Of a stretch of 64,000 nt of DNA, positions 8,679-35,930 are shown piece by piece. The DNA is taken from the NCBI GenBank assembly GCA_046723845.1, contig JBKOVG010000159.1, positions 764-64,763 of the forward strand, in the 5' to 3' direction. The stretch's first letter is position 1; every line of letters starts with the position of its first letter. The translations under genes were made by a program, and so were the position numbers. Under the pieces are notes generated by a model. That model worked only from the letters and a program-made list of their open reading frames with translations. It made no database searches and had not been told where the DNA came from. This stretch comes from Candidatus Methylomirabilota bacterium (lineage in GTDB: Bacteria; Methylomirabilota; Methylomirabilia; Rokubacteriales; CSP1-6).

Positions 8679-9929
<1,251 letters not shown>

Positions 9930-20240: not shown

Positions 20241-20283
20241 TTGACAGCAGTTCGATAGTTTCATACCATTCGAAATATGAAAG
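20241..20283 (+). promoter_or_regulatory. ars promoter with ArsR-type operator palindrome; arsR mRNA probably leaderless
   Basis: -35 is TTGACA (20241-20246), followed by a 17-nt spacer and -10 TACCAT (20264-20269). The arsR ATG at 20277 is 7 nt after the -10 and has no Shine-Dalgarno. The inverted repeat TTTCATA (20259-20265) / TATGAAA (20276-20282) spans the -10 and the start codon. Confidence 0.55.
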
Positions 20284-20585
20284 CCATCGCCCGGCTACCC
20301 CTGTCCCAGCTGGAGGCCGACGAGACCCATGTCGAGGCGTTCAAGGCCCTCGGCCATCTCTCTCGCCTTCAGGTGTTCTTCTACCTCGTGCGCGCCGGTC
20401 GGGAAGTGCCCGCGGGCGAGATCCAGGCCGCCGTGGAGATTCCCGGGCCGACCCTCTCTCACCACCTGGATGCGCTCCGACGCGCCGGGCTCGTGGAAAG
20501 CCGGAAGGAAGAGCGGTACGTCTACTACTCCGTGCAACGGGAGACGGCGACCACCCTGGCCCGCTTGCTCACCGCCTGCTGCTAG
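20277..20585 (+). CDS. arsR: ArsR/SmtB-family metalloregulator (C-terminal Cys-pair type)
   Basis: 102 aa. The wHTH is FKALGHLSRLQVFFYLV...LSHHLDALRRAGLVESRKEERYVYY. It has no ELCVCDL motif but ends ...LLTACC. Confidence 0.85.
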   Translation: MKAIARLPLSQLEADETHVEAFKALGHLSRLQVFFYLVRAGREVPAGEIQAAVEIPGPTLSHHLDALRRAGLVESRKEERYVYYSVQRETATTLARLLTACC

Positions 20586-20596
20586 AGGAGGCCCCC

Positions 20597-21031
20597 ATGA
20601 GCGCAAAGGTCCACCTGCACCTCCACGTCTCGGATCTCGGCAAGAGCCGCGACTTCTACGAGCGATTCCTCGGCGCGGGTCCCGTCAAGGTGAAGACGGG
20701 CTACGTGAAGTTCCTGCCCGAATGGGCACCCGTCAACCTCGCCCTCTCACAAGGCCGACACGCCGCGGAGGGCACAGTGAATCACGTCGGCGTCCAGGTC
20801 GACACGGTGAGCGCCGTCATGGACCACCTCGCCCGCGTCAAGGCAGCCGGCCTGCCCGTGCGGGAAGAGATGGGGGTGAACTGCTGCCACGCCAACCAGG
20901 ACAAGTTCTGGGTCCAGGACCCGGATGGCGTGGAGTGGGAGGTGTACCACCTCAACTACGATCTCGAAGACGAGGCGTCCGCCGCCAAGGGGCTTCAGCT
21001 CGCCAAGAGCCGCGCCTGCTGCAGCTCCTGA
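20597..21031 (+). CDS. ArsI/CadI-family VOC (glyoxalase-fold) metalloenzyme, candidate C-As lyase
   Basis: 144 aa with GAGGAG Shine-Dalgarno upstream. The VOC fold is seen in HLHLHVSDLGKSRDFYERFLG. A vicinal Cys pair is present in GVNCCHANQDKFWVQDPDGVEWEVY. Confidence 0.75.
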   Translation: MSAKVHLHLHVSDLGKSRDFYERFLGAGPVKVKTGYVKFLPEWAPVNLALSQGRHAAEGTVNHVGVQVDTVSAVMDHLARVKAAGLPVREEMGVNCCHANQDKFWVQDPDGVEWEVYHLNYDLEDEASAAKGLQLAKSRACCSS

Positions 21032-21041
21032 GGGGTCGGCG

Positions 21042-21860
21042 ATGAGCGAGCACGAGATCAAGCAGATCGTCAAGGACAAGTACGGTAAGGTCGCGCTCGA
21101 CGTGGTGGCGGGCGGTCATGCCTGTTGCGGGGGCACATCCGGGTGCGAGGGCGATCCCATCACGTCCAACCTTTACTCGGCGAGCGAGATCGCGTGCGTC
21201 CCCGGCGAGGCCGCGGCCGCCTCGCTCGGCTGCGGGAACCCCACGGCCCTGGCCGAGCTCAAGGCCGGCGAGACGGTGCTCGACCTGGGGTCGGGCGGTG
21301 GCATCGACGTGCTGCTCTCCGCCCAGCGGGTGGGACCGACCGGCAAGGCCTACGGGCTCGACATGACGGACGAGATGCTGGCGCTCGCGCGCGAGAACCA
21401 GCGCACGGCCGGCGTCGGCAACGTGGAGTTCCTCAAGGGCGAGATCGAAGCGATTCCGCTCCCGGACGACTCCGTGGACGTGATCATCTCGAACTGCGTG
21501 ATCAATCTTTCTGCGGACAAGGACCGCGTGCTGAGCGAAGCCTTCCGTGTGCTCAGGCCGGGTGGCCGCTTCGCCGTGTCCGACGTCGTGGTGAGCGGCC
21601 CCGTGCCCCCCGCCATCCGGCGCAGTGTCGAGCTCTGGATCGGGTGTGTGGCCGGCGCCCTCGAGGAGCGGGAGTACCGCGACAAGCTGGCCAAGGCCGG
21701 CTTTGAGGCAATCGACGTCGAGCCCACGCGCGTCTATCGCATGGAAGACGCGCGGGAGTTCCTCGCTGGCGCCGGCATCGACGCCGACGCCGTCGCGCCC
21801 CAGGTGGACGGCAAGTTCATGAGCGCCTTCGTCCGCGCCGTCAAGCCCGGCGCACGGTGA
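21042..21860 (+). CDS. arsM: Arsenite S-adenosylmethionine methyltransferase
   Basis: 272 aa. SAM motif [11 protein letters not shown]. Conserved Cys positions are GHACCGG...[12 protein letters not shown] and WIGCVAGA. Confidence 0.88.
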
Positions 21861-22573
21861 GCCGGGCGCACCCTCATCGACCCCAACTCCGGCGTCGGGT
21901 CGTGGCAGAGGCCGTGGGCACGGCGTTGCTGCTGGCCACGGTGATCGGCTCCGGAATCATGGGGGAACGCCTGGCCGGTGGGAACGTGGCGCTGGCGCTG
22001 GTGGCCAACACGCTGGCCACCGGCGCCGCCCTCGCGGCGCTCATTCTCACCTTCGGGCCCATCTCGGGCGCTCACTTCAACCCCGCGGTGACCCTCTCGG
22101 ATGCCTGGCAGGGCGGTATCGGGTGGGCCGACGTTCTGCCCTACGTGGTCGCGCAGGTCCTCGGCGCCTTCGCCGGGACCGCGGTGGCGCACATGATGTT
22201 CGAGCTGCCGCTCTACTCCGCATCCCAGCACGTGCGGACCGGTCCCGCCCAGATGTTCAGCGAGTTTGTGGCAACGTTCGGACTCCTCGCCGTCATCTGG
22301 GGTTGTGTCCGGTCACGCACGTCCACGGTCCCCTTCGCCGTGGCCGCCTACATCACGGCGGCGTACTGGTTCACGGCTTCCACCTCGTTCGCGAACCCGG
22401 CCGTGACCCTGGCCCGCGCCGCGTCGGATACCTTCGCGGGCATCCGGCCCGCCGACGCGCCGGGCTTCATCGTGGCGCAGCTCTGCGGGGCGGCAGCGGC
22501 CACCGGCCTCTTCCGGTGGCTGGTCCCTGCCTTGCCCGAGTCCGCGCCGGACGTGGTGGTCCGCCCACGTTGA
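21857..22573 (+). CDS. MIP-family aquaglyceroporin (AqpS-like arsenite channel)
   Basis: 238 aa with two NPA boxes (SGAHFNPAVT and SFANPAVT). The start overlaps the arsM stop. Confidence 0.88.
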   Translation: MSRAHPHRPQLRRRVVAEAVGTALLLATVIGSGIMGERLAGGNVALALVANTLATGAALAALILTFGPISGAHFNPAVTLSDAWQGGIGWADVLPYVVAQVLGAFAGTAVAHMMFELPLYSASQHVRTGPAQMFSEFVATFGLLAVIWGCVRSRTSTVPFAVAAYITAAYWFTASTSFANPAVTLARAASDTFAGIRPADAPGFIVAQLCGAAAATGLFRWLVPALPESAPDVVVRPR

Positions 22574-22743
22574 GCCTTTTCGCGGCGGGCGAAAGTGGAT
22601 GGCTCCTCGCCATCTGCGCGTCGCGGGTGGGCGCCTACATGGTCTACATCGCGTACGCGGCGACGCTCCCCGTGTTGCAAGCTTCGGTCCTTCATCAGCG
22701 CCGGGGCCCTCACTCTGCTCCCGTGTCCGCACCCGCGCGATGA
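22570..22743 (+). pseudogene. Possible N-terminal remnant of an MFS transporter gene / 57-codon bridging ORF
   Basis: The frame reads (L)SLFAAGESGWLLAICASRVGAYMVYIAYAATLPVLQASVLHQ... Compare the N-terminus of the downstream MFS, VCAQIGAYTWPALLPGF...YAAYTLAVPVL. TTG overlaps the aqp stop and TGA overlaps the arsN ATG. Confidence 0.3.
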
Positions 22744-23255
22744 CGACCGGACCCCGTACGCGGCTGGCCACGGTCGCCGACGCGGCAGCGATCGCGGAGA
22801 TTTATAACGAGGGCATCGCCGATCGCGTGGCCACGTTCGAAACGACGCCTCGCACCGCCGAGCAGCTCAGGACACAGCTCGCCGACAAGGGAGACCGCTT
22901 CCCGACGGTGGTGGTCGAGCGAGACGGGCGGATCGTGGCATGGGCGAGCGCCGTGCCCTATCGCAGTCGGCCCGCATACTCCGGCGTGGCCGAGCACTCC
23001 GTGTACGTGGCGCGCGCCGCCCGCGGCACGGGCGCAGGACGGCAGGCGCTCGAGGCCCTCTGTCACGTCTATGCGGAGCGCGGCTTCTGGAAGATCGTGT
23101 CGCGGATCTTTCCGGAGAACACGGCGAGCCTGGCCCTTCACGAGCGATGCGGCTTCCGCGTGGTCGGCATCTATCACCGTCACGGCAAGCTGGACGGACA
23201 GTGGCGGGACTGCGTGATCGTGGAGCGGCTGATCGACGGGTCACCGGGAGACTGA
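22740..23255 (+). CDS. ArsN1/phosphinothricin-N-acetyltransferase-like GNAT
   Basis: 171 aa. Reads ATVADAAAIAEIYNEGIADRVATFETTPRT...[20 protein letters not shown]...ASLALHERCGFRVVG, the PAT-family pattern, inside an ars cluster. Confidence 0.8.
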   Translation: MTTGPRTRLATVADAAAIAEIYNEGIADRVATFETTPRTAEQLRTQLADKGDRFPTVVVERDGRIVAWASAVPYRSRPAYSGVAEHSVYVARAARGTGAGRQALEALCHVYAERGFWKIVSRIFPENTASLALHERCGFRVVGIYHRHGKLDGQWRDCVIVERLIDGSPGD

Positions 23256-23256
23256 C

Positions 23257-23673
23257 ATGGCCAGATCGCGGGTGCTGTTTCTGTGCACGCACAATTCGGC
23301 GCGCAGCCAGATGGCCGAGGGCTTGCTGCGCTCCATGGCCGGCGACCGCCTCGAAGTGGGCAGCGCGGGAACGGAAAAGACCTCGGTGAATCCGCTGGCG
23401 ATCCGGGTCATGGCCGAGCTGGGCATCGACATCACCGGTCATACCTCGAAGCGGTACGAAGACGTCATGAGCCAGGGATGGGACAGCATCATCACGGTCT
23501 GTGACGATGCCAACGAGCGCTGCCCGGTTGTTCCCGGCTTGGTCAAGCGATTGCACTGGTCGTTCGAGGATCCGTCGCGAGCCTCCGGCGTTGAGGAGCA
23601 GCGTCTCGCGGTGTTCCGTCGCGTGCGCGACCAGATCGAAGCGCGTCTCACGGCATGGCTGAAGAGCCCTTAG
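23257..23673 (+). CDS. arsC: Arsenate reductase, LMW-PTP (thioredoxin-coupled) type
   Basis: 138 aa. The P-loop is LCTHNSARS (CX5R), and the downstream Cys pair is in TVCDDANERCP. Confidence 0.9.
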   Translation: MARSRVLFLCTHNSARSQMAEGLLRSMAGDRLEVGSAGTEKTSVNPLAIRVMAELGIDITGHTSKRYEDVMSQGWDSIITVCDDANERCPVVPGLVKRLHWSFEDPSRASGVEEQRLAVFRRVRDQIEARLTAWLKSP

Positions 23674-23725
23674 TGCGGCCGAGTCCGCCCTGCGCACCCT
23701 GACCCCGGCTCGTCTGGTCACCGGC

Positions 23726-24952
23726 GTGTGCGCGGCGCAGGTGTGCGCCCAGATTGGAGCGTACACGTGGCCGGCACTCCTGCCCGGGTTCATCGCCGAC
23801 TGGCAGCTCAGCAACGGCGAGGCCGGCTGGATCACCGGGGTCTTCTACGCGGCCTACACGCTCGCCGTGCCAGTGCTCGTCACCCTCACGGATCGTGTCG
23901 ATGCCCGCGTCGTCTACCTGTCGGGAGTCGCCCTCACGATCGCGAGCCATCTGGGCTTCGCCGCGCTCGCGGATGGCTTCTGGAGCGCGCTGGTGGCGCG
24001 CACGCTGGCCGGGGTGGGGTGGGCGGGCACGTACATGACGGGATTGAAGCTCCTGGCCGATCGAGTGGATCCCGTCCTCATGTCGCGCGCGGTCGCCGGC
24101 CATGCCGCGAGCATCGGCATCGCCGGCGCGCTCTCCTTTGCGTTCGCCGGCACGCTGAACCGCTGGTACGGCTGGCGGGGAGCATTCGTGGGTGCGGGGC
24201 TGGCCGCGCTGGTCGCCTGGATCGTCGTGTTCTGGTGGGCGCCCTCGCGCGAGCGACGCCCGTCCCCGACCTCGCCGGCAGCGCTCTTCGACTTCCGCCC
24301 CGTGCTCCGCAATCGCTCCGCGATGGCATACGCCCTGGCCTACTCGGCCCACACGTGGGAAATGAACGCATTGCGAGGCTGGGCCGTGACCTTTCTGACG
24401 TACGTGGCCGCGGCGAGCAGCGAACAGAACCCTTGGATGGCGCCCACCCTCGTGGTCACGACCATGGGCCTCGTCGGCACCGGGGCGAGCGTGGCGGGGA
24501 ACGAAGCGTCGATCAAGCTGGGCCGCCAGCGCCTGGTCCGGCTGGTCATGCTGTCGTGCGCGATGTGCGCCGCCGGCATCGGGTTCCTGGGGCCCCGATC
24601 GTACCCGCTCGCGGCCGCCCTGGTCCTCGGCTACGGGCTCCTCATCTGGCTCGACTCCTCGTCTCTCACTGCAGGGGCGGCGGGCAGCGCCGATCCGTCA
24701 CGCCGGGGAGCCACGCTGGCCGTCCACTCGATGGCCGGCTACGCGGGCGGCTTCGTCGGACCGATCATGATCGGCTGGATTCTCGACCGCGCTGGCGGCA
24801 TGTCGCCTCTTGGCTGGGGACTGGCATTCCTGCACCTTGGCATTGTCGTCCTCGCCGGCCGGTTCGCATTCGTATGGCTTGCTCCGCGCGACCTGGCTGG
24901 CGATAGGGCCGAGCGGAGGCTATGGCGAGCGACCAACGGAGGCCGCCCATGA
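23726..24952 (+). CDS. MFS transporter embedded in the ars cluster (substrate unknown)
   Basis: 408 aa and 12-TM-like. The first canonical start is GTG 23726, but the frame is open and hydrophobic back to 23672 with only CTG codons, so the true start is uncertain. Confidence 0.75.
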   Translation: MCAAQVCAQIGAYTWPALLPGFIADWQLSNGEAGWITGVFYAAYTLAVPVLVTLTDRVDARVVYLSGVALTIASHLGFAALADGFWSALVARTLAGVGWAGTYMTGLKLLADRVDPVLMSRAVAGHAASIGIAGALSFAFAGTLNRWYGWRGAFVGAGLAALVAWIVVFWWAPSRERRPSPTSPAALFDFRPVLRNRSAMAYALAYSAHTWEMNALRGWAVTFLTYVAAASSEQNPWMAPTLVVTTMGLVGTGASVAGNEASIKLGRQRLVRLVMLSCAMCAAGIGFLGPRSYPLAAALVLGYGLLIWLDSSSLTAGAAGSADPSRRGATLAVHSMAGYAGGFVGPIMIGWILDRAGGMSPLGWGLAFLHLGIVVLAGRFAFVWLAPRDLAGDRAERRLWRATNGGRP

Positions 24953-27192: not shown

Positions 27193-28032
27193 CTACGCGA
27201 GCTCGGGCCAGACCACCATGCCCGTCCCGGAGCGCCAGGCCAGGGCGGGCATATAGGCGAGCACCTCGGCCGGGCCCCTCGTGAATGCCATGGCGAGCAC
27301 CCACGCGATCAGCTCCGCGGTGCCGCCCGAGCCCGCCTCCTCCATGCGCTCGAGCGTGCACTCGCGCAGGAGGGCCTGGTGATCGCCCTTCTTGAGGAGA
27401 TCCAGGAACCAGAGATCGAACTCCTCGTCCACCCAGAAGTAGCGCGGCCCGCCCGGCTCGTGGGAGAGGCCGCCCGTGGCGAGGATGGCGATGCGCTCCT
27501 GGCCCGGATAGGCCTTGAGCATCTCCCGCAGCGTCGTGCCGACCTGATAGGCGCGCTCGGGGGTAGGAATGGGCGGCACCGTGCAGTTCATGGTCACGGG
27601 CACGAGGGGAATCGAGCCGGCGGGATTGAGATAGTGCATGGGCACGGACACGCCGTCGTCGAACTGCATCCGGCGCAGGTAGGCGAAGGCGATGCGCCGG
27701 CGCGCTCCCTCGTCGACGATGTAGCGCGCGAGGGCGGGGTGGCCGGGAATGCGGTATTGCTTCATGTCCAGCCACTCGTCGTACCACTCGGCGGGGCCCA
27801 CGTGCTCGGCGGCGATCCCCACGGTGTACTCCGGCGTGTTGTTGATGGGCCAGTTGAGCAGATGGTCGTTGCTGAACACCACGACGACGTCGGGGCGAGC
27901 TCGGGCGAGGCGCTCCCGCATCTCGCCCATGGCGCGCAGGGCCTGCTCTTGGTAGTCCTTCGGGGCGCGGTCGAACCAGCCCGTGAGCCCCGGGGAGTGC
28001 GTCATGGCCATGGCGGCGACGATCTGGACCAT
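27193..28032 (-). CDS. Class III extradiol ring-cleavage dioxygenase, LigB-type catalytic subunit
   Basis: 279 aa. Reads MAMTHSPG...VVVFSNDHLLNW...ATGGLSHEPGGPRY, a protocatechuate-4,5 / gallate dioxygenase beta-subunit-like pattern. Confidence 0.8.
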   Translation of the reverse strand: MVQIVAAMAMTHSPGLTGWFDRAPKDYQEQALRAMGEMRERLARARPDVVVVFSNDHLLNWPINNTPEYTVGIAAEHVGPAEWYDEWLDMKQYRIPGHPALARYIVDEGARRRIAFAYLRRMQFDDGVSVPMHYLNPAGSIPLVPVTMNCTVPPIPTPERAYQVGTTLREMLKAYPGQERIAILATGGLSHEPGGPRYFWVDEEFDLWFLDLLKKGDHQALLRECTLERMEEAGSGGTAELIAWVLAMAFTRGPAEVLAYMPALAWRSGTGMVVWPELA

Positions 28033-28035
28033 GGC

Positions 28036-28383
28036 TCAGCGCCCCCGCTTCTCGAGCTGGTCCTGGAGCCGCTCAGAGCGGGCCGCCTCTTCCGGATAGG
28101 CGCGCTTGTAAGCCTCCAGCGCGGGGTGGCTGTTCGAGTTGGCGGCCGCGCCGTAGAAGAGGCGGAGGATCTGCGGCACATAGTACTGGTGCACGCCCAG
28201 GTCGTGGAGGCGCCGCACGTCCTTGGTGCGAAGGGCGTCGAACTCCTCTGCGCTCAGTCCGAACTCGCGCGCGATGCCCTCGAGGTCGGTGAGCCAGCGC
28301 GCGCGCAGCCCGGCATCGCGCCGCACGTGGTACATCATCTCGTTCAGGGGCAGGGTCTTGATGCAGCGATCGACGTTACCCAT
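28036..28383 (-). CDS. LigA-type small subunit of aromatic ring-opening dioxygenase
   Basis: 115 aa. Reads LNEMMYHVRRDAGLRARWLTDLEGIAREFGLSAEEFDALRTKDVRRLHDLGVHQYY, directly upstream of the LigB-type gene. Confidence 0.7.
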   Translation of the reverse strand: MGNVDRCIKTLPLNEMMYHVRRDAGLRARWLTDLEGIAREFGLSAEEFDALRTKDVRRLHDLGVHQYYVPQILRLFYGAAANSNSHPALEAYKRAYPEEAARSERLQDQLEKRGR

Positions 28384-28753
28384 CGCTCGCCCCCTTCAGG
28401 ATCTTGGGATTGACCTTGAGGAACATGATCACGCAGCGGGTCGACCCGAGGTTGCGTACGTCGTGGAGCACGGCATTGGGAAACTTTACGATCGATCCCG
28501 CGGGCACCACCACTTCCTCGCCGCCGATGTTCATATTGGCGGTGCCCTCGAGGACGTAAATGGCCTCTTCCTCCTTCGGGTGCTGGTGCATCACCGTCGA
28601 CTGGCCGGGCTCGTAGCAGGCGATCTCCGACCAGAGCTGATCGGACTTGAAGAGCATCTTGCGCACGCGCTTGTCGGGCGCAAAGTCCTTGAGGGCGTGG
28701 AGATCGAAGAGCTCCGCGACCCCCTTCACCGTGGCCACCGCTGTCTCGTCCAT
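28376..28753 (-). CDS. Cupin-2 domain protein
   Basis: 125 aa from ATG 28753 with AAGGAGG Shine-Dalgarno. Cupin motifs are GQSTVMHQHPKEEEAIYVLEG...VVPAGSIVKFPNAVLHDVRN. There is an 8-nt overlap with the LigA-type gene. Confidence 0.8.
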   Translation of the reverse strand: MDETAVATVKGVAELFDLHALKDFAPDKRVRKMLFKSDQLWSEIACYEPGQSTVMHQHPKEEEAIYVLEGTANMNIGGEEVVVPAGSIVKFPNAVLHDVRNLGSTRCVIMFLKVNPKILKGASDG

Positions 28754-28892
28754 GAGCTGGCCTCCTTGCCTCGGGCCCGCATCATAGCCCCATCGCGCCC
28801 CTCGGGCCACCCGCAGACGGCCGAGAAGGGTCCAGATGCGAGGCGGCGCCCGACGGCAGCCGGCGAGGCGTAGTCTGTCTACGCTAGCCGGC

Positions 28893-32044: not shown

Positions 32045-32134
32045 GAAGATGGCCTCCGCTTCGAGGGTTTCGAACCGCCCCTGGGTGGGCGGGATAGTAG
32101 GTGGACGCAATAGGGGCTGTCAAGCCAGGGGCGG

Positions 32135-33586
32135 CTACATCACCACCCCGGACACCCCCTCGTGGAGCGTGGGCTTGAGAGGGCCGAACTGGCCCTCGGT
32201 GGGCTCGGCTCAGCAGAACCAGGCTTCGGTGAGCCGGGGGGGCCGGCGGCGGTCGGGCGCGAGCGGCGGCATGGGCTCCGCCGTGCGTCCCGCCGCCGCC
32301 TGGGCCAGCGCTTTGAGGCGGTAGAAGGTGCAGGCGGGGTCCGCGCCGCCCGCCTGCTCCACGAGCCGGCTCGCCTCGCGCTGGAGCGCATCCATGCGCG
32401 GATCGGGATGCGTCCAGCGGTGGATGAAGTCCGCCTGATCGAGCGCGCCCAGGTATGGTCGGATGGCCGCGCGGGTCAGCAGCGAAGAGCCGGGCGGCAC
32501 GAGAAGCCGGAGGGTGAACTGCACCGGGTCGACGTAATCGATCAATCCCTCCACCTCCAGGAAGGCGAACATCTCCAGGTAGTCCTCGAGGGTCGTCCAC
32601 GGCGTGAAGGCGATCCAGGTCGGGCGGAACGCGATGCCCGCCCCGCGCACCACGCCGAGCGCGCGGCCGACGTCAGCTCGCGTGTGTCCCTTCTCGAGGT
32701 TGGCGAGCACGTCGTCGCTGAGCGACTCCACCGCGGAGACCATGAAGACGCAGCCGAGCTTGCGCAGCTCGGGAAAGAGATCCGCCCGCTCCAGGATGTG
32801 CTCCACCTTGGCGGTGAAGTCGAAGGTCAGCTCCGGCCGCTCTCGGTGCATTGCCCGCACGATGGCCAGCGAATGACCAGGGCCGTTGAGGAAATCGGGG
32901 TCCCCGAAGGTGATGTGGGTGGCGCCGTCCTGGGCGAGCCGCCGAATGTCGTCGAGCACGATCGCCTGCGGCACGACGAAGAAGCGACCGCCATAGACGG
33001 GCGGGATGGGGCAATGCAGGCACAGGTGCAGACAGCCCCGGCTCGCCTCGACGTAGCCGACCAGCTCCTTGCGCCCGTCGCGATCGAGATGCGCGTAACG
33101 CTTGAGGCCGGGCAGCGCGCCTCGGCTCGGCGCCGCGAAGGGCAGCCGCTGCAAGACGGGCATCGCCGCGTGCTCACGCTGGCGCACGCCGTCGATGGGG
33201 CCGGAGCGCCCGCTCGTCACCGCGTCCACGAGGGCGAGCAGGGCCGCCTCGTACTCGCCGCCGATCACCGAGTCGCCGCAGTGCTCGAGGAGATAGTCGG
33301 CGTTGAGCGAGGCGTAGAGGCCGTAGAAGCAGACGTGACAGCGCGGATTCACGCGGCGGATCTGCTCCGCCACGCGCACCCCGAGGCGAAGCGCGGTGTG
33401 CATGGGCACCGAGATGGCGACGAGGCGGGCGCGCGCGAATCGCCCCGACTCGAACGGCTCCACGGAGATGTCGAGGGCCTCCGCGGCGTACCCCGCGCGC
33501 TCGAGGAAGGCGAGCGGCGAGGCGAGGGCCAGGGGCTGGTGCCCCAGTTCGTAGCAGGAGACGAGGAGGATCGTCCCCTGGTCCAT
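32135..33586 (-). CDS. Radical SAM enzyme with B12-binding-like N-domain and predicted selenocysteine-containing C-terminal CUAEP tail (UGA at 32212-32210 recoded)
   Basis: The radical SAM cluster motif is SRGCLHLCLHC (CxxxCxxC). The track ORF stops at TGA after ...LTEAWFC. Read-through gives U-AEPTEGQFGPLKPTLHEGVSGVVM, then TAG at 32137-32135. A SECIS-like hairpin starts 12 nt after the UGA. Confidence 0.7.
32179..32197 (-). promoter_or_regulatory. SECIS-like stem-loop (selenocysteine insertion element candidate)
   Basis: The mRNA reads UGA-GCCGAGCCCACC-GAGGGCC-AGUUC-GGCCCUC. It has a perfect 7-bp GC-rich stem and a 5-nt loop containing G-U. The loop begins 19 nt after the UGA. Confidence 0.6.
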
Positions 33587-33587
33587 C

Positions 33588-34355
33588 TCAGCGCGCCTTG
33601 GCGAGGATGAAGAGACGGCGGAAGGGGAAGAGGGTGCGCCCGTCGAACTGCGGCGGATAGGCCCGCGCCGTCCGCGCCGCGTAGTCGGCCTCGAAGCGGC
33701 TGCGCTCCGGCTCGTCGAGCGCGGCGAGAAGCGGGCGCAGCCAGGTGCCCTTGGTCCACTCCTTCACCGGATTCTCGCCGTCAAGGATCTGGAGATATTC
33801 CGTCTCCCAGATGTCGAGGGCGGCCGCGTGCGGCGCGAGGAGGCCGTAGTAGTAGGCGGGATCGCCGGTCGGCGACGGACGCAGGAGCGGCTCGAGCTTC
33901 GCCCGCCACGGGCCGCTGCGCGCGGCGTCGGAGATTGAGGTGTGCGAGGGGGCCGAGAAGTTTCGTGGCATCTGCACGGCCAGCACCCCACCGGGGGCGA
34001 GCGAGGAGAAGAGCGAGTCGAAGAGCTTGTCGTGCCCGTCCACCCAGTGCAGCGCGGCGTTGGAATAGATGAGGTCCACGGGCCGCGCCGGCCGCCATGC
34101 GCCGAGGTCGGCGAGCTGCCACTGTATCTCCGGTGCCGAGCCGGCGGCCTTGGCCAGCATCTCCGGCGAGGTGTCGACGCCAGTGACGCGGGCGTTCGGC
34201 CACCGTAGCCTGATCAGCTTCGTCACGTTGCCGGCGCCCGCGCCGAGATCCACGACTTCGGCGGGGTCGGCGAGGTCGATGCGGTTCAGGAGATCGATCG
34301 CGGGGCGGAGCCGCTGGTCGGCGAACTTGAGGTATTGCGCAGGATCCCAGGCCAT
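33588..34355 (-). CDS. Class I SAM-dependent methyltransferase, trans-aconitate 2-methyltransferase (Tam)-like
   Basis: 255 aa from ATG 34355. Reads MAWDPAQYLKFADQRLRPAIDLL...VVDLGAGAGNVT...IYSNAALHW, the Tam-family pattern. Its stop is 1 nt before the radical SAM ATG. Confidence 0.8.
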   Translation of the reverse strand: MAWDPAQYLKFADQRLRPAIDLLNRIDLADPAEVVDLGAGAGNVTKLIRLRWPNARVTGVDTSPEMLAKAAGSAPEIQWQLADLGAWRPARPVDLIYSNAALHWVDGHDKLFDSLFSSLAPGGVLAVQMPRNFSAPSHTSISDAARSGPWRAKLEPLLRPSPTGDPAYYYGLLAPHAAALDIWETEYLQILDGENPVKEWTKGTWLRPLLAALDEPERSRFEADYAARTARAYPPQFDGRTLFPFRRLFILAKAR

Positions 34356-34883: not shown

Positions 34884-35930
34884 CTAGCGGGGCTTGGCGC
34901 GCACGCGCCACTCGAAGCACGCGTCCCCCCGATCGAGGCGGCGGCGCACGTCCAGGAGCAGGTGGCGGTTGTGCACCGAAAGCGCGCCTTGCCATAGCGC
35001 GTTCCAACCCTCGAAGACCGCGGGGCTCGGCGAAGACACGCCCTGCATCAGTCGCCACGAGTGCTGCCGCACCATCATCTCGTCGCCCTCGCGCAAGCAT
35101 TCCACGCGATCGTCCTGCGCCTGGCCAAGGCGCGCGAGGTACTCGGCGAAGTCATCTTGGCTGGTGCCCTTGACGCCAAGGAGTTCCGCCGTCTCGGCGT
35201 AGTACTGCATGCCGATGAGGGTGCCGGTGACGCCGCCCAGGTAGCGCGCCTCCGCCTCCCCAAAGGTCTCTGCGAGCACGGGCAGGATGGTCCGCACGTA
35301 GTCCATCGCGTAGTTGCGCGTGATCTTCCGCAGGCGCTCGGGCGGCCAGTCCGCGCCTTCCACCCGCGGCGCGCGGGCAGGATCGAAGTCGGGGCCGTCC
35401 TCGCCCGGCGCGAAGCGCAGGCGCTCCTCGGGCTCGAGATCGCGATCGTGCTCGAGGTAGTAGCCCTCGAGGCCCGGCTGGCCGTCGGTTGTCTGCTTGG
35501 TGCACACGAAACCCAGGCGCGGGTTGCCGAGCGACACGCCGTTGTGGGCGTGCCAGCCGCGGAGCATGGCGCGCGAGACCTCGCTGGGCACCCCGCAGAT
35601 GGCCGTGCCCTCGTAGATCCAGCGCGGCGGCACGTAGCGCACCCACGCTTTCGTATCCGACTCGAACATGTACTCGACGCGCACCCCGCCCAGGTGGTTG
35701 GACAGGTAGTGGTACTGGGCGCAGGCCACGGCGTGCGGCAACTTTGCGAGGCCGAGCTTCTCGAGCCCGGGGAGGAACTTCTCCAGGTGCTGGCGCCGGA
35801 AGGTGCGGAAGACGAGCTCGGCGGCGGCCGTGCCTCCACGCCGGCTCATCGTGGTGAGGATGAGGCCGGTGAGGTAGGCATGATAGATGGTCTCGACGGC
35901 CCCGTATCCCGCGGAGAGCGAGTCGCGCAC
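34884..35930 (-). CDS. Hypothetical protein with apparent internal two-domain duplication
   Basis: 348 aa and no motif I can name. The two halves show parallel patterns: EKLGLAK..AQYHYLSNHLGGVRVEYMFESDTKAWVRY..RGWHAHNG versus ELLGVKG..AEYLARLGQAQDDRVECLREGDEMMVRQ..EGWNALWQG. Confidence 0.5.
   Translation of the reverse strand: MRDSLSAGYGAVETIYHAYLTGLILTTMSRRGGTAAAELVFRTFRRQHLEKFLPGLEKLGLAKLPHAVACAQYHYLSNHLGGVRVEYMFESDTKAWVRYVPPRWIYEGTAICGVPSEVSRAMLRGWHAHNGVSLGNPRLGFVCTKQTTDGQPGLEGYYLEHDRDLEPEERLRFAPGEDGPDFDPARAPRVEGADWPPERLRKITRNYAMDYVRTILPVLAETFGEAEARYLGGVTGTLIGMQYYAETAELLGVKGTSQDDFAEYLARLGQAQDDRVECLREGDEMMVRQHSWRLMQGVSSPSPAVFEGWNALWQGALSVHNRHLLLDVRRRLDRGDACFEWRVRAKPR

Follow-up and report, generated by a model that had tools for sequence, protein, structure and literature searches.

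Does the UGA codon at positions 32212-32210 of this stretch of Candidatus Methylomirabilota DNA (contig JBKOVG010000159.1 of assembly GCA_046723845.1; 64,000 nucleotides, referred to below as the window) end a radical S-adenosylmethionine (SAM) gene, or is it read as selenocysteine (Sec), and what would the resulting enzyme do? Coordinates refer to the minus strand unless stated otherwise. Ordinary open reading frame (ORF) calling from the ATG at 33586 ends the radical SAM protein (rSAM) at 32210, after ...RLTEAWFC. When the frame is followed further, the UGA is succeeded by GCC GAG CCC (A-E-P), by 21 more sense codons (TEGQFGPLKPTLHEGVSGVVM) and by a TAG at 32137-32135, giving a full-length predicted selenoprotein gene (32135..33586) of 483 codons including Sec459, plus the stop. 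Cys458 (TGC) and the putative Sec459 (TGA), recognized through comparison of homologous codons, would form a C-U dyad at 32210..32215, and the tail past Sec, delimited by codon-position conservation, consists of 24 codons (AEPTEGQFGPLKPTLHEGVSGVVM) at 32138..32209. Direct reading also places the CxxxCxxC motif for the [4Fe-4S] cluster and SAM (C185/C189/C192, in GCLHLCLHC) at 33011..33034. The first-pass annotation of the window had proposed a selenoprotein with a hairpin resembling a selenocysteine insertion sequence (SECIS) behind its UGA, and every statement that it made about the sequence (the ORFs, CxxxCxxC, the UGA, the AEP tail, the hairpin and a 1-nt gap to the gene upstream) was confirmed on re-reading.

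Recoding of the in-frame UGA

Among 185,579 species genomes scanned, 80 loci of the family were found, 81 once the window was added, in Methylomirabilota, Acidobacteriota, Planctomycetota, Nitrospirota, Gemmatimonadota, Poribacteria, Nitrospinota, Tectomicrobia and others. The codon after WFC could be read in the 74 loci that carry the motif, window included, from more than ten phyla: it was TGA in 52, TGC in 16 and TGT in 6, and never TAA, TAG or another sense codon. TGA and Cys loci alike continued into [U/C]AEPTxxQ[L/F]. When the codons +1 to +4 of 49 TGA loci were compared, entropy was close to 0 at the first and second codon positions and 0.64-1.80 bits at the third, and the codons upstream of the UGA displayed the same pattern of third-position variation. 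Within the clade of the window (rSAM identity of at least ~79%; nine loci) the tail is kept as protein, AEPTEGQFGPL[KQ]P[TSA]LH[EA]GV[SA]GVV[MVL], with synonymous changes, a length fixed at 24 codons and a final stop that may be TAG, TAA or TGA. Distribution by phylum across the 80 loci was sharp, with Sec forms in 12/12 Methylomirabilota, 10/10 Planctomycetota and 4/4 Poribacteria loci, Cys forms in 17/17 Nitrospirota loci, and mostly Sec forms in Acidobacteriota and Gemmatimonadota. The alignment of homologues, which the first-pass annotation had suggested as a check, therefore supports its selenoprotein reading: the column holds Sec or Cys and nothing else, the AEP(T) codons vary at their third positions, and the 24-residue tail is conserved in the clade.

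The hairpin consists of a 7-bp stem, GAGGGCC/GGCCCUC, closed by the loop AGUUC (32179..32197); it starts 12 nt past the UGA and its loop begins 19 nt past it. RNA folding, a further check that had been suggested, did not single it out, since the 66-nt region 32150-32215 folded no better than its shuffles (z = -0.97; 33 of 200 shuffles at least as stable). A lone hairpin of this kind is within chance in DNA of ~70% GC, and folding is not evidence either way. Rfam returned nothing relevant, and no SECIS match, when the whole window was searched at gathering thresholds or 32080-32280 under permissive settings. The significance of the hairpin comes entirely from the comparison of homologues. A stem of at least 5 bp with its 5′ arm ending at nt 22 from the U of the UGA, and with a loop AGUU(N), was present in 49 of the 50 TGA loci and in 0 of the 22 Cys loci (Mann-Whitney p = 5e-12 for the stem comparison). 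Among the 35 sequences whose loop has 5 nt, 87% of the cells were paired, compared to at most 57% in slid registers. Covariation analysis revealed double-sided changes at 5 of the 7 pairs, and the observed score was reached by 0 of 500 shuffles. The SECIS-like hairpin of the first-pass annotation thus stands at a fixed distance from the UGA, carries compensatory changes and accompanies UGA but not Cys; it behaves as a SECIS element inside the coding sequence, as judged from this comparison. One TGA-type locus from Acidobacteria (L017:2371-2430) has a divergent tail, AEPLRTSLV..., and a hairpin with an 8-bp stem and the 3-nt loop GUC, shifted by one register, which may be an indel form of both SECIS and tail.

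If the UGA were a genuine stop, the protein would end at ...WFC, and the conservation and the hairpin behind it would reflect a terminator or a regulatory RNA. Compatible with such a stop are the insignificant folding of the single sequence (z = -0.97), the lack of a SECIS match in Rfam and the outcome of a search of the 64-kb window with E. coli SelA, SelB and SelD probes and with ARAGORN, in which no selA, selB, selD or tRNA-Sec was found. This last result weighs against recoding, although an absence from 64 kb is uninformative and says little; Methylomirabilota are documented as heavy users of Sec, and the largest of the predicted bacterial selenoproteomes has been reported from this phylum (PMC13188914). 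A genuine stop is, on the other side, hard to reconcile with 52 loci in which the UGA is never exchanged for TAA or TAG and only Cys codons take its place, with the codon-position periodicity downstream, with a tail fixed at 24 codons before a variable final stop, and with a hairpin that is missing exactly where Cys stands in for the UGA; nor was a U-tract terminator found. We consider the genuine-stop reading effectively refuted. A reassigned genetic code was also rejected, because the neighbouring methyltransferase gene uses TGA as its ordinary stop. Recoding of the UGA at 32212-32210 as Sec is near-certain from the comparative data, and we put the probability that the protein is a Sec-containing member of family NF040546 (described below) from a Methylomirabilota (Rokubacteria) genome at about 0.9. 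As a separate observation, SelD is encoded 1.5-1.8 kb upstream of the rSAM gene at two Acidobacteriota-type loci (L046:3302-4219 and L057:4-261, both on the minus strand); the former is a Cys-type member, which could hint at a link to selenium beyond Sec insertion.

Family, fold and gene neighbourhood

Profile searches were run with the read-through protein, Sec being written as Cys. The protein matched NF040546, "CUAEP/CCAEP-tail radical SAM (seleno)protein", with 687.5 bits against a curated cutoff of 500 (E = 8.3e-207), and its residues 6-468 aligned with profile positions 1-467 of 468, an alignment that extends beyond the UGA. The family named by the first-pass annotation therefore exists and includes this protein. 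Its C-terminal C-[U/C]-A-E-P motif corresponds to WFC-UGA-AEP at 32215-32201, and the CxxxCxxC and the N-terminal B12-binding-like domain were both present, Pfam scoring B12-binding (PF02310, 34.1) and Radical_SAM (PF04055, 38.6) above their gathering thresholds. All three Cys of CxxxCxxC occur in 71 of 72 family loci and also in ArsL. The nearest database relatives (70-100% identity) come from Rokubacteria/Methylomirabilota, some of them named by NCBI after the NF040546 family. All 118 full-length relatives end in ...PPRLTEAWFC and are therefore truncated at the same codon, just as the first-pass annotation had expected of gene callers. A library of representatives at 50% identity was about evenly split between ...[FY]C ends and ...CCxEP, with a few ArsL-type KRCC[IL]KC tails among them. 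Practically all public gene sets thus carry a wrong call for the rSAM gene, lacking both Sec and the conserved AEPT tail, which is probably the part that acts in catalysis. It is extremely likely that the protein has rightly been called a selenoprotein, its hairpin a SECIS and NF040546 its family; all three points were on record in curated form beforehand (NF040546, a family called "uncharacterized" in one sentence of Haft's 2022 preprint).

No solved structure of a close relative was found. An AlphaFold2 (AF2) model built on a 67-sequence alignment reached a pLDDT of 96.7 and a pTM of 0.94; an earlier model from a shallow 10-sequence alignment (pLDDT 65) was discarded. Foldseek searches with the AF2 model returned AprD4 as the best match (TMq 0.71), followed by OxsB (0.69), TsrM (0.62-0.66) and MgmA (0.59), with MiaB and TokK also among the matches; TMq ranged from 0.59 to 0.71 for AprD4, TsrM, OxsB, MgmA and TokK, and PDB profile matches agreed. 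The predicted fold thus combines the Rossmann-like cobalamin domain and the radical SAM barrel of class B enzymes. AprD4 has the Rossmann-like domain and is not known to use cobalamin, and therefore the fold does not decide whether the rSAM uses it.

To describe the neighbourhood, flanking ORFs of the family loci were clustered, hidden Markov models (HMMs) were built for each cluster and the clusters were annotated with Pfam and NCBIfam. An L-amino-acid ligase (ATP-grasp_4 + LAL_C2; nearest curated families BacD and DdaF, below their cutoffs) was found at 34 loci, on the same strand in 29; an Nfu/NifU Fe-S carrier at 28 loci, on the same strand in 27 and usually immediately downstream; and DUF169 at 16 loci, always on the same strand. 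An ornithine/diaminopimelate-type decarboxylase dependent on pyridoxal phosphate (PLP) occurs at 6 loci (Planctomycetota), and an Atg22-type exporter of the major facilitator superfamily (MFS) at 7 (Acidobacteriota). At least one of Nfu, ligase and DUF169 was present in 41 of the 61 loci with at least 1.5 kb of downstream sequence. Amino acids or peptides are the substrates of several of these neighbours (the ligase, the PLP decarboxylase, the Atg22-type exporter and an Opp-type transporter). Searches of the window with the HMMs (E <= 1e-8) found no Nfu, ligase or DUF169 anywhere, and no match to the PLP decarboxylase, Atg22 or crotonase either.

What stands next to the rSAM gene in the window is a Tam-like class I SAM methyltransferase of 255 aa (33588..34355; ATG 34355, TGA 33590-33588), whose stop is separated from the rSAM ATG at 33586 by a single base (G 33587). 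It scored below the curated cutoffs of both Tam profiles (NF010703, 274.1 bits against 320; NF002463, 272.0 against 297), matched Methyltransf_23/25/11 in Pfam and contains no cysteine. In all nine contexts of the clade (the window, L001, L081, L082, L085, L086, L087, L094 and L095) the methyltransferase lies directly upstream, with a gap of 1-4 nt or an overlap, while the flanking genes differ on both sides. Pairing as a trait of the whole family was rejected: it occurs at only 2 of the 81 loci and at 0 of the other 79 genome loci outside the window clade, and Methylomirabilota relatives at 75% rSAM identity have the arrangement rSAM-NifU-ligase without the pair. Conversely, methyltransferases 75-77% identical to that of the window have no rSAM beside them on 3 of 3 long contigs. 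Solo and paired copies interleave in an identity matrix and in a neighbour-joining tree; the solo methyltransferase of L092 is 82% identical to the paired one of L087, to which the window copy is only 75% identical. The solo orthologues and this interleaving argue that the methyltransferase is the ordinary Tam-like orthologue of the phylum and no specialised partner. Of the two-gene module put forward by the first-pass annotation, conservation of the pair within the clade held up, whereas neighbourhood statistics over the wider family, which it had also suggested, did not bear the module out; the adjacency is a lineage-specific arrangement of one Methylomirabilota clade.

The two genes probably form an operon, because a promoter-like site follows rSAM. 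This sigma-70-like element, TTGACA-18-TACTAT (32094..32123; recognized by consensus alone, with a 10/12 match and 1 site against 0.1 expected), sits in the 90-nt gap between the predicted true stop of the selenoprotein and a gene for the substrate-binding protein of an ATP-binding cassette (ABC) transporter (ATG ~32044, twin-arginine signal), and it is likely to mark the 3′ boundary of the methyltransferase-rSAM unit. The ABC transporter was rejected as part of the unit, being missing in L082, L085, L087, L094 and L095 and preceded by the promoter-like site.

On the plus strand of the window, 8.4 kb from rSAM, lies an ars operon (20277..23673), identified by profile scores and tblastn and given here as context, its association with rSAM not being proven. 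It comprises ArsR (20277-20582), an ArsI/CadI-type vicinal oxygen chelate enzyme (ArsI, 20597-21028; 129.6 against a cutoff of 116), ArsM (21042-21857; 371.5 against 263), a major intrinsic protein (MIP) channel (21857-22573), ArsN1a (~22758-23255; 213.4 against 170) and an LMWPc-type ArsC (23257-23673; 146.7, below its cutoff of 174.3). ArsN1 family A is the arsinothricin-resistance acetyltransferase. An ars operon stands 0.09-8.4 kb from rSAM in 6 of 6 informative contexts of the clade (L095, 0.09 kb; L082, 1.6; L094, 1.7; L085, 4.8; L087, 6.4 kb; and the window), with different cassettes in between; in L095 a convergent ArsN1 ends 90 nt past the rSAM tail. The pattern fits one ancestral juxtaposition and therefore carries the weight of roughly one event; the ars association of the clade is a lead and no demonstration, as it may reflect a single ancestral event. 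An MFS transporter follows the operon in the window, the whole stretch covering 20277-24952 on the plus strand. ArsC and ArsN1 are separate adjacent genes in the window and in L085; L082 has a single 308-aa ORF (8952-9878, minus strand) that fuses an LMWPc-type ArsC to ArsN1 family A.

Between rSAM and the ars operon, the window also carries a cupin - LigA - LigB cassette (27193-28810, minus strand; class III extradiol dioxygenase), which recurs just downstream of rSAM in L085 and L094 and farther downstream in L081 and L086. A 348-aa ORF (34884-35930, minus strand) has no Pfam or NCBIfam match and is syntenic in L081, L085 and L086 (350-354 aa), between response-regulator and ABC_sub_bind genes.

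Candidate chemistry and its rivals

The second-best NCBIfam match of the protein was ArsL (NF040542), with 327.7 bits, the next family scoring 55.6, and identity to an ArsL-type protein was 34% over residues 2-401. In a 72-locus alignment that included three ArsL-type sequences, Cys458-Sec459 aligned with the vicinal CC of the ArsL motif RCCLKC. ArsL has a canonical CxxxCxxC, yet it converts SAM into methylthioadenosine (MTA) and a 3-amino-3-carboxypropyl (ACP) species, which forms the C-As bond of hydroxyarsinothricin; the cysteines of its C-terminal RCCLKC are As(III) ligands, and the product is subsequently methylated by ArsM (bioRxiv 10.1101/2024.02.01.577332, 10.64898/2026.04.29.721666). 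As the comparison of homologues shows, translation runs on past the UGA for 24 codons, giving a predicted 483-aa protein with a Cys458-Sec459 dyad near its C-terminus. By analogy with ArsL, its CxxxCxxC [4Fe-4S] cluster would cleave SAM non-canonically and move the ACP group, with MTA as by-product, and the acceptor would be a soft heteroatom on the dyad, whose position is homologous to that of the As(III)-binding Cys-Cys of ArsL. The product would be an amino acid of the gamma-substituted 2-aminobutyrate type. In most lineages it could be handed to the adjacent L-amino-acid ligase; in the lineage of the window those partners are missing, and the gene follows that of an ordinary Tam-like methyltransferase, with an ars operon in the vicinity. 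From homology and context, the most likely chemistry appears to be an ArsL-like one, in which the Cys-Sec dyad holds the heteroatom that receives the aminocarboxypropyl group, and we propose it tentatively.

Several observations count against an ArsL-like enzyme. The curated ArsL cutoff of 450 is not reached by the 327.7 bits, and the third tail Cys of ArsL is missing, the tail being FCUAEP and not the three-Cys RCCLKC. Four cysteines are the family's own (C11 99%, C83 86%, C86 75% and C279 93% conserved in the 72-locus alignment); C11, C83 and C86 are missing from ArsL, and the absence from it of the near-invariant C11 and C279 could mean a different chemistry. None of Nfu, ligase and DUF169 is found in the window, and 79 of the 80 wider-family loci have no ars homologue (one has). 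Finally, the sole mention of NF040546 in the literature says "uncharacterized", and it is from homology that we infer the chemistry.

Two rivals assign the dyad or the additional cysteines another role. In a methylthiotransferase-like chalcogen insertion, the source of S or Se would be an auxiliary Fe-S cluster or a per(sulf/selen)ide bound by C11/C83/C86 of the N-terminal domain, possibly together with the tail, and Nfu would rebuild it. This would account for the Nfu/NifU gene immediately downstream on the same strand at 27 loci, for the conservation of these three cysteines that ArsL lacks, for MiaB and RimO as neighbours in structure (TMq 0.61-0.62) and sequence, and for SelD beside L046 and L057. 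But C83 and C86 are not invariant, the top structural match, AprD4 (TMq 0.71), has no such cluster, and homology to ArsL far exceeds that to methylthiotransferases (327.7 against 20.8 bits), making this route decidedly improbable. Mammalian thioredoxin reductase carries a GCUG tail, and the vicinal C-U near the C-terminus could likewise be a redox tail, in which a selenenylsulfide shuttles electrons or resolves an enzyme-product adduct without binding substrate; Sec/Cys interchange is typical of redox sites. According to Haft's 2022 preprint CU motifs are rare, but the same source ties other CU motifs to heavy-metal binding; moreover, the homologous CC of ArsL binds As(III) and is no redox relay, and the median of 18-19 residues after the dyad, with AEPTxxQ conserved, is unlike a free swinging end. 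We regard a redox tail as improbable, marginally less so than chalcogen insertion.

The other two rivals draw on the surroundings of the window clade. In a dedicated co-translated module, the Tam-like methyltransferase would methylate the product or substrate of rSAM, for example by esterifying a carboxylate. The tight spacing, the persistence of the pair in 9/9 clade contexts although both flanks change, the separate promoter-like site after rSAM and the tandem of ArsL with a methyltransferase all speak for this. Its counterweights are the absence of the pair from 79/80 family loci and from the Methylomirabilota relatives at 75% identity, the orthologues 75-82% identical that lack rSAM in 3/3 contigs and interleave with paired copies, and a clade so shallow that the adjacency may be a single inherited event; a methyltransferase devoid of cysteine is also not an ArsM-type metalloid methylase. 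Such a module is possible, with the odds clearly against it. The alternative of an arsenic role holds that in this clade the enzyme is a Sec-dependent functional analogue of ArsL: its Cys-Sec would hold As(III) for the formation of a C-As bond, ArsM would turn the product by methylation into a compound of the arsinothricin type, and ArsN1 would give self-resistance. ArsL is indeed the closest characterised family, with the As(III)-binding CC homologous to the dyad; the ars operon is near in 6/6 clade contexts, ArsM is present in four (window, L082, L094, L095) and ArsN1a, with 213-219 and 204 bits against 170, in five (window, L082, L085, L087, L095). Yet the operon is convergent and not co-transcribed, and the variable cassettes in between fit a scenario in which the two were juxtaposed once in an ancestor and later driven apart by insertions; soil ars operons often contain ArsN1 and ArsM whatever the biosynthesis, ars genes are missing beside 79/80 other family loci, and two chalcogen ligands face the three Cys of ArsL. 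We judge an arsenic role unlikely, somewhat more so than the module.

If the ArsL-like transfer that we favour is taken further, CUAEP enzymes might be ArsL-like ACP transferases whose Cys-Sec presents As, Se or S to make an undescribed amino acid, which in Acidobacteriota, Nitrospirota and Methylomirabilota the ligase would turn into a dipeptide antimetabolite; the window clade might then make an organoarsenical of the arsinothricin type by a second route, one that depends on selenium and is linked to an ars operon encoding ArsM and the resistance enzyme ArsN1. We offer this scheme as speculation, doubtful as a whole. NF040546 occurs widely among phyla of soil and sediment; its sister relationship to ArsL, a dyad at the As(III) site and the recurrent ligase and Nfu make an "uncharacterized" family experimentally addressable. 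An ArsL-like activity, if true, would make this the first selenoprotein among the non-canonical rSAM enzymes of that class and would provide new antimetabolite amino acids.

Comparison with known systems

The recoding signal resembles that of SelB-dependent bacterial selenoproteins with a SECIS inside the ORF, the E. coli fdhF type, which likewise has an in-frame UGA, a hairpin ~11-12 nt on with G-U in the apical loop, and UGA/Cys interchange in homologues with loss of the hairpin where Cys is used. The CUAEP hairpin differs in that its stem is short, 5-8 bp, its AGUU(N) loop has 4-5 nt, a bulged U is not evident and no curated Rfam model matches. The protein itself does not differ from NF040546: it combines the B12-binding-like and radical SAM domains in the same way, and its tail reads C-[U/C]-A-E-P-T, the same column holding Sec or Cys. 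The locus does differ: Nfu, the L-amino-acid ligase and DUF169, which accompany most members, are missing from the window clade, where a Tam-like methyltransferase gene lies upstream and an ars operon nearby. That methyltransferase has Tam (trans-aconitate 2-methyltransferase) as its closest match, aligned over the full length, but scores under both curated cutoffs. The overall fold is shared with AprD4, TsrM, OxsB, MgmA and TokK, although sequence identity is only 15-19% and none of them has a Cys-Sec tail. ArsL is the sister family, having in common the N-terminal domain, CxxxCxxC and a vicinal dichalcogen pair at the homologous tail position. The CUAEP family departs from it in a tail that reads C-U-A-E-P and not R-C-C-L-K-C, with Sec in place of one Cys, and in the extra conserved C11/C83/C86/C279; and ArsL genes belong to ars operons that include arsM, whereas ars genes are missing from most CUAEP loci.

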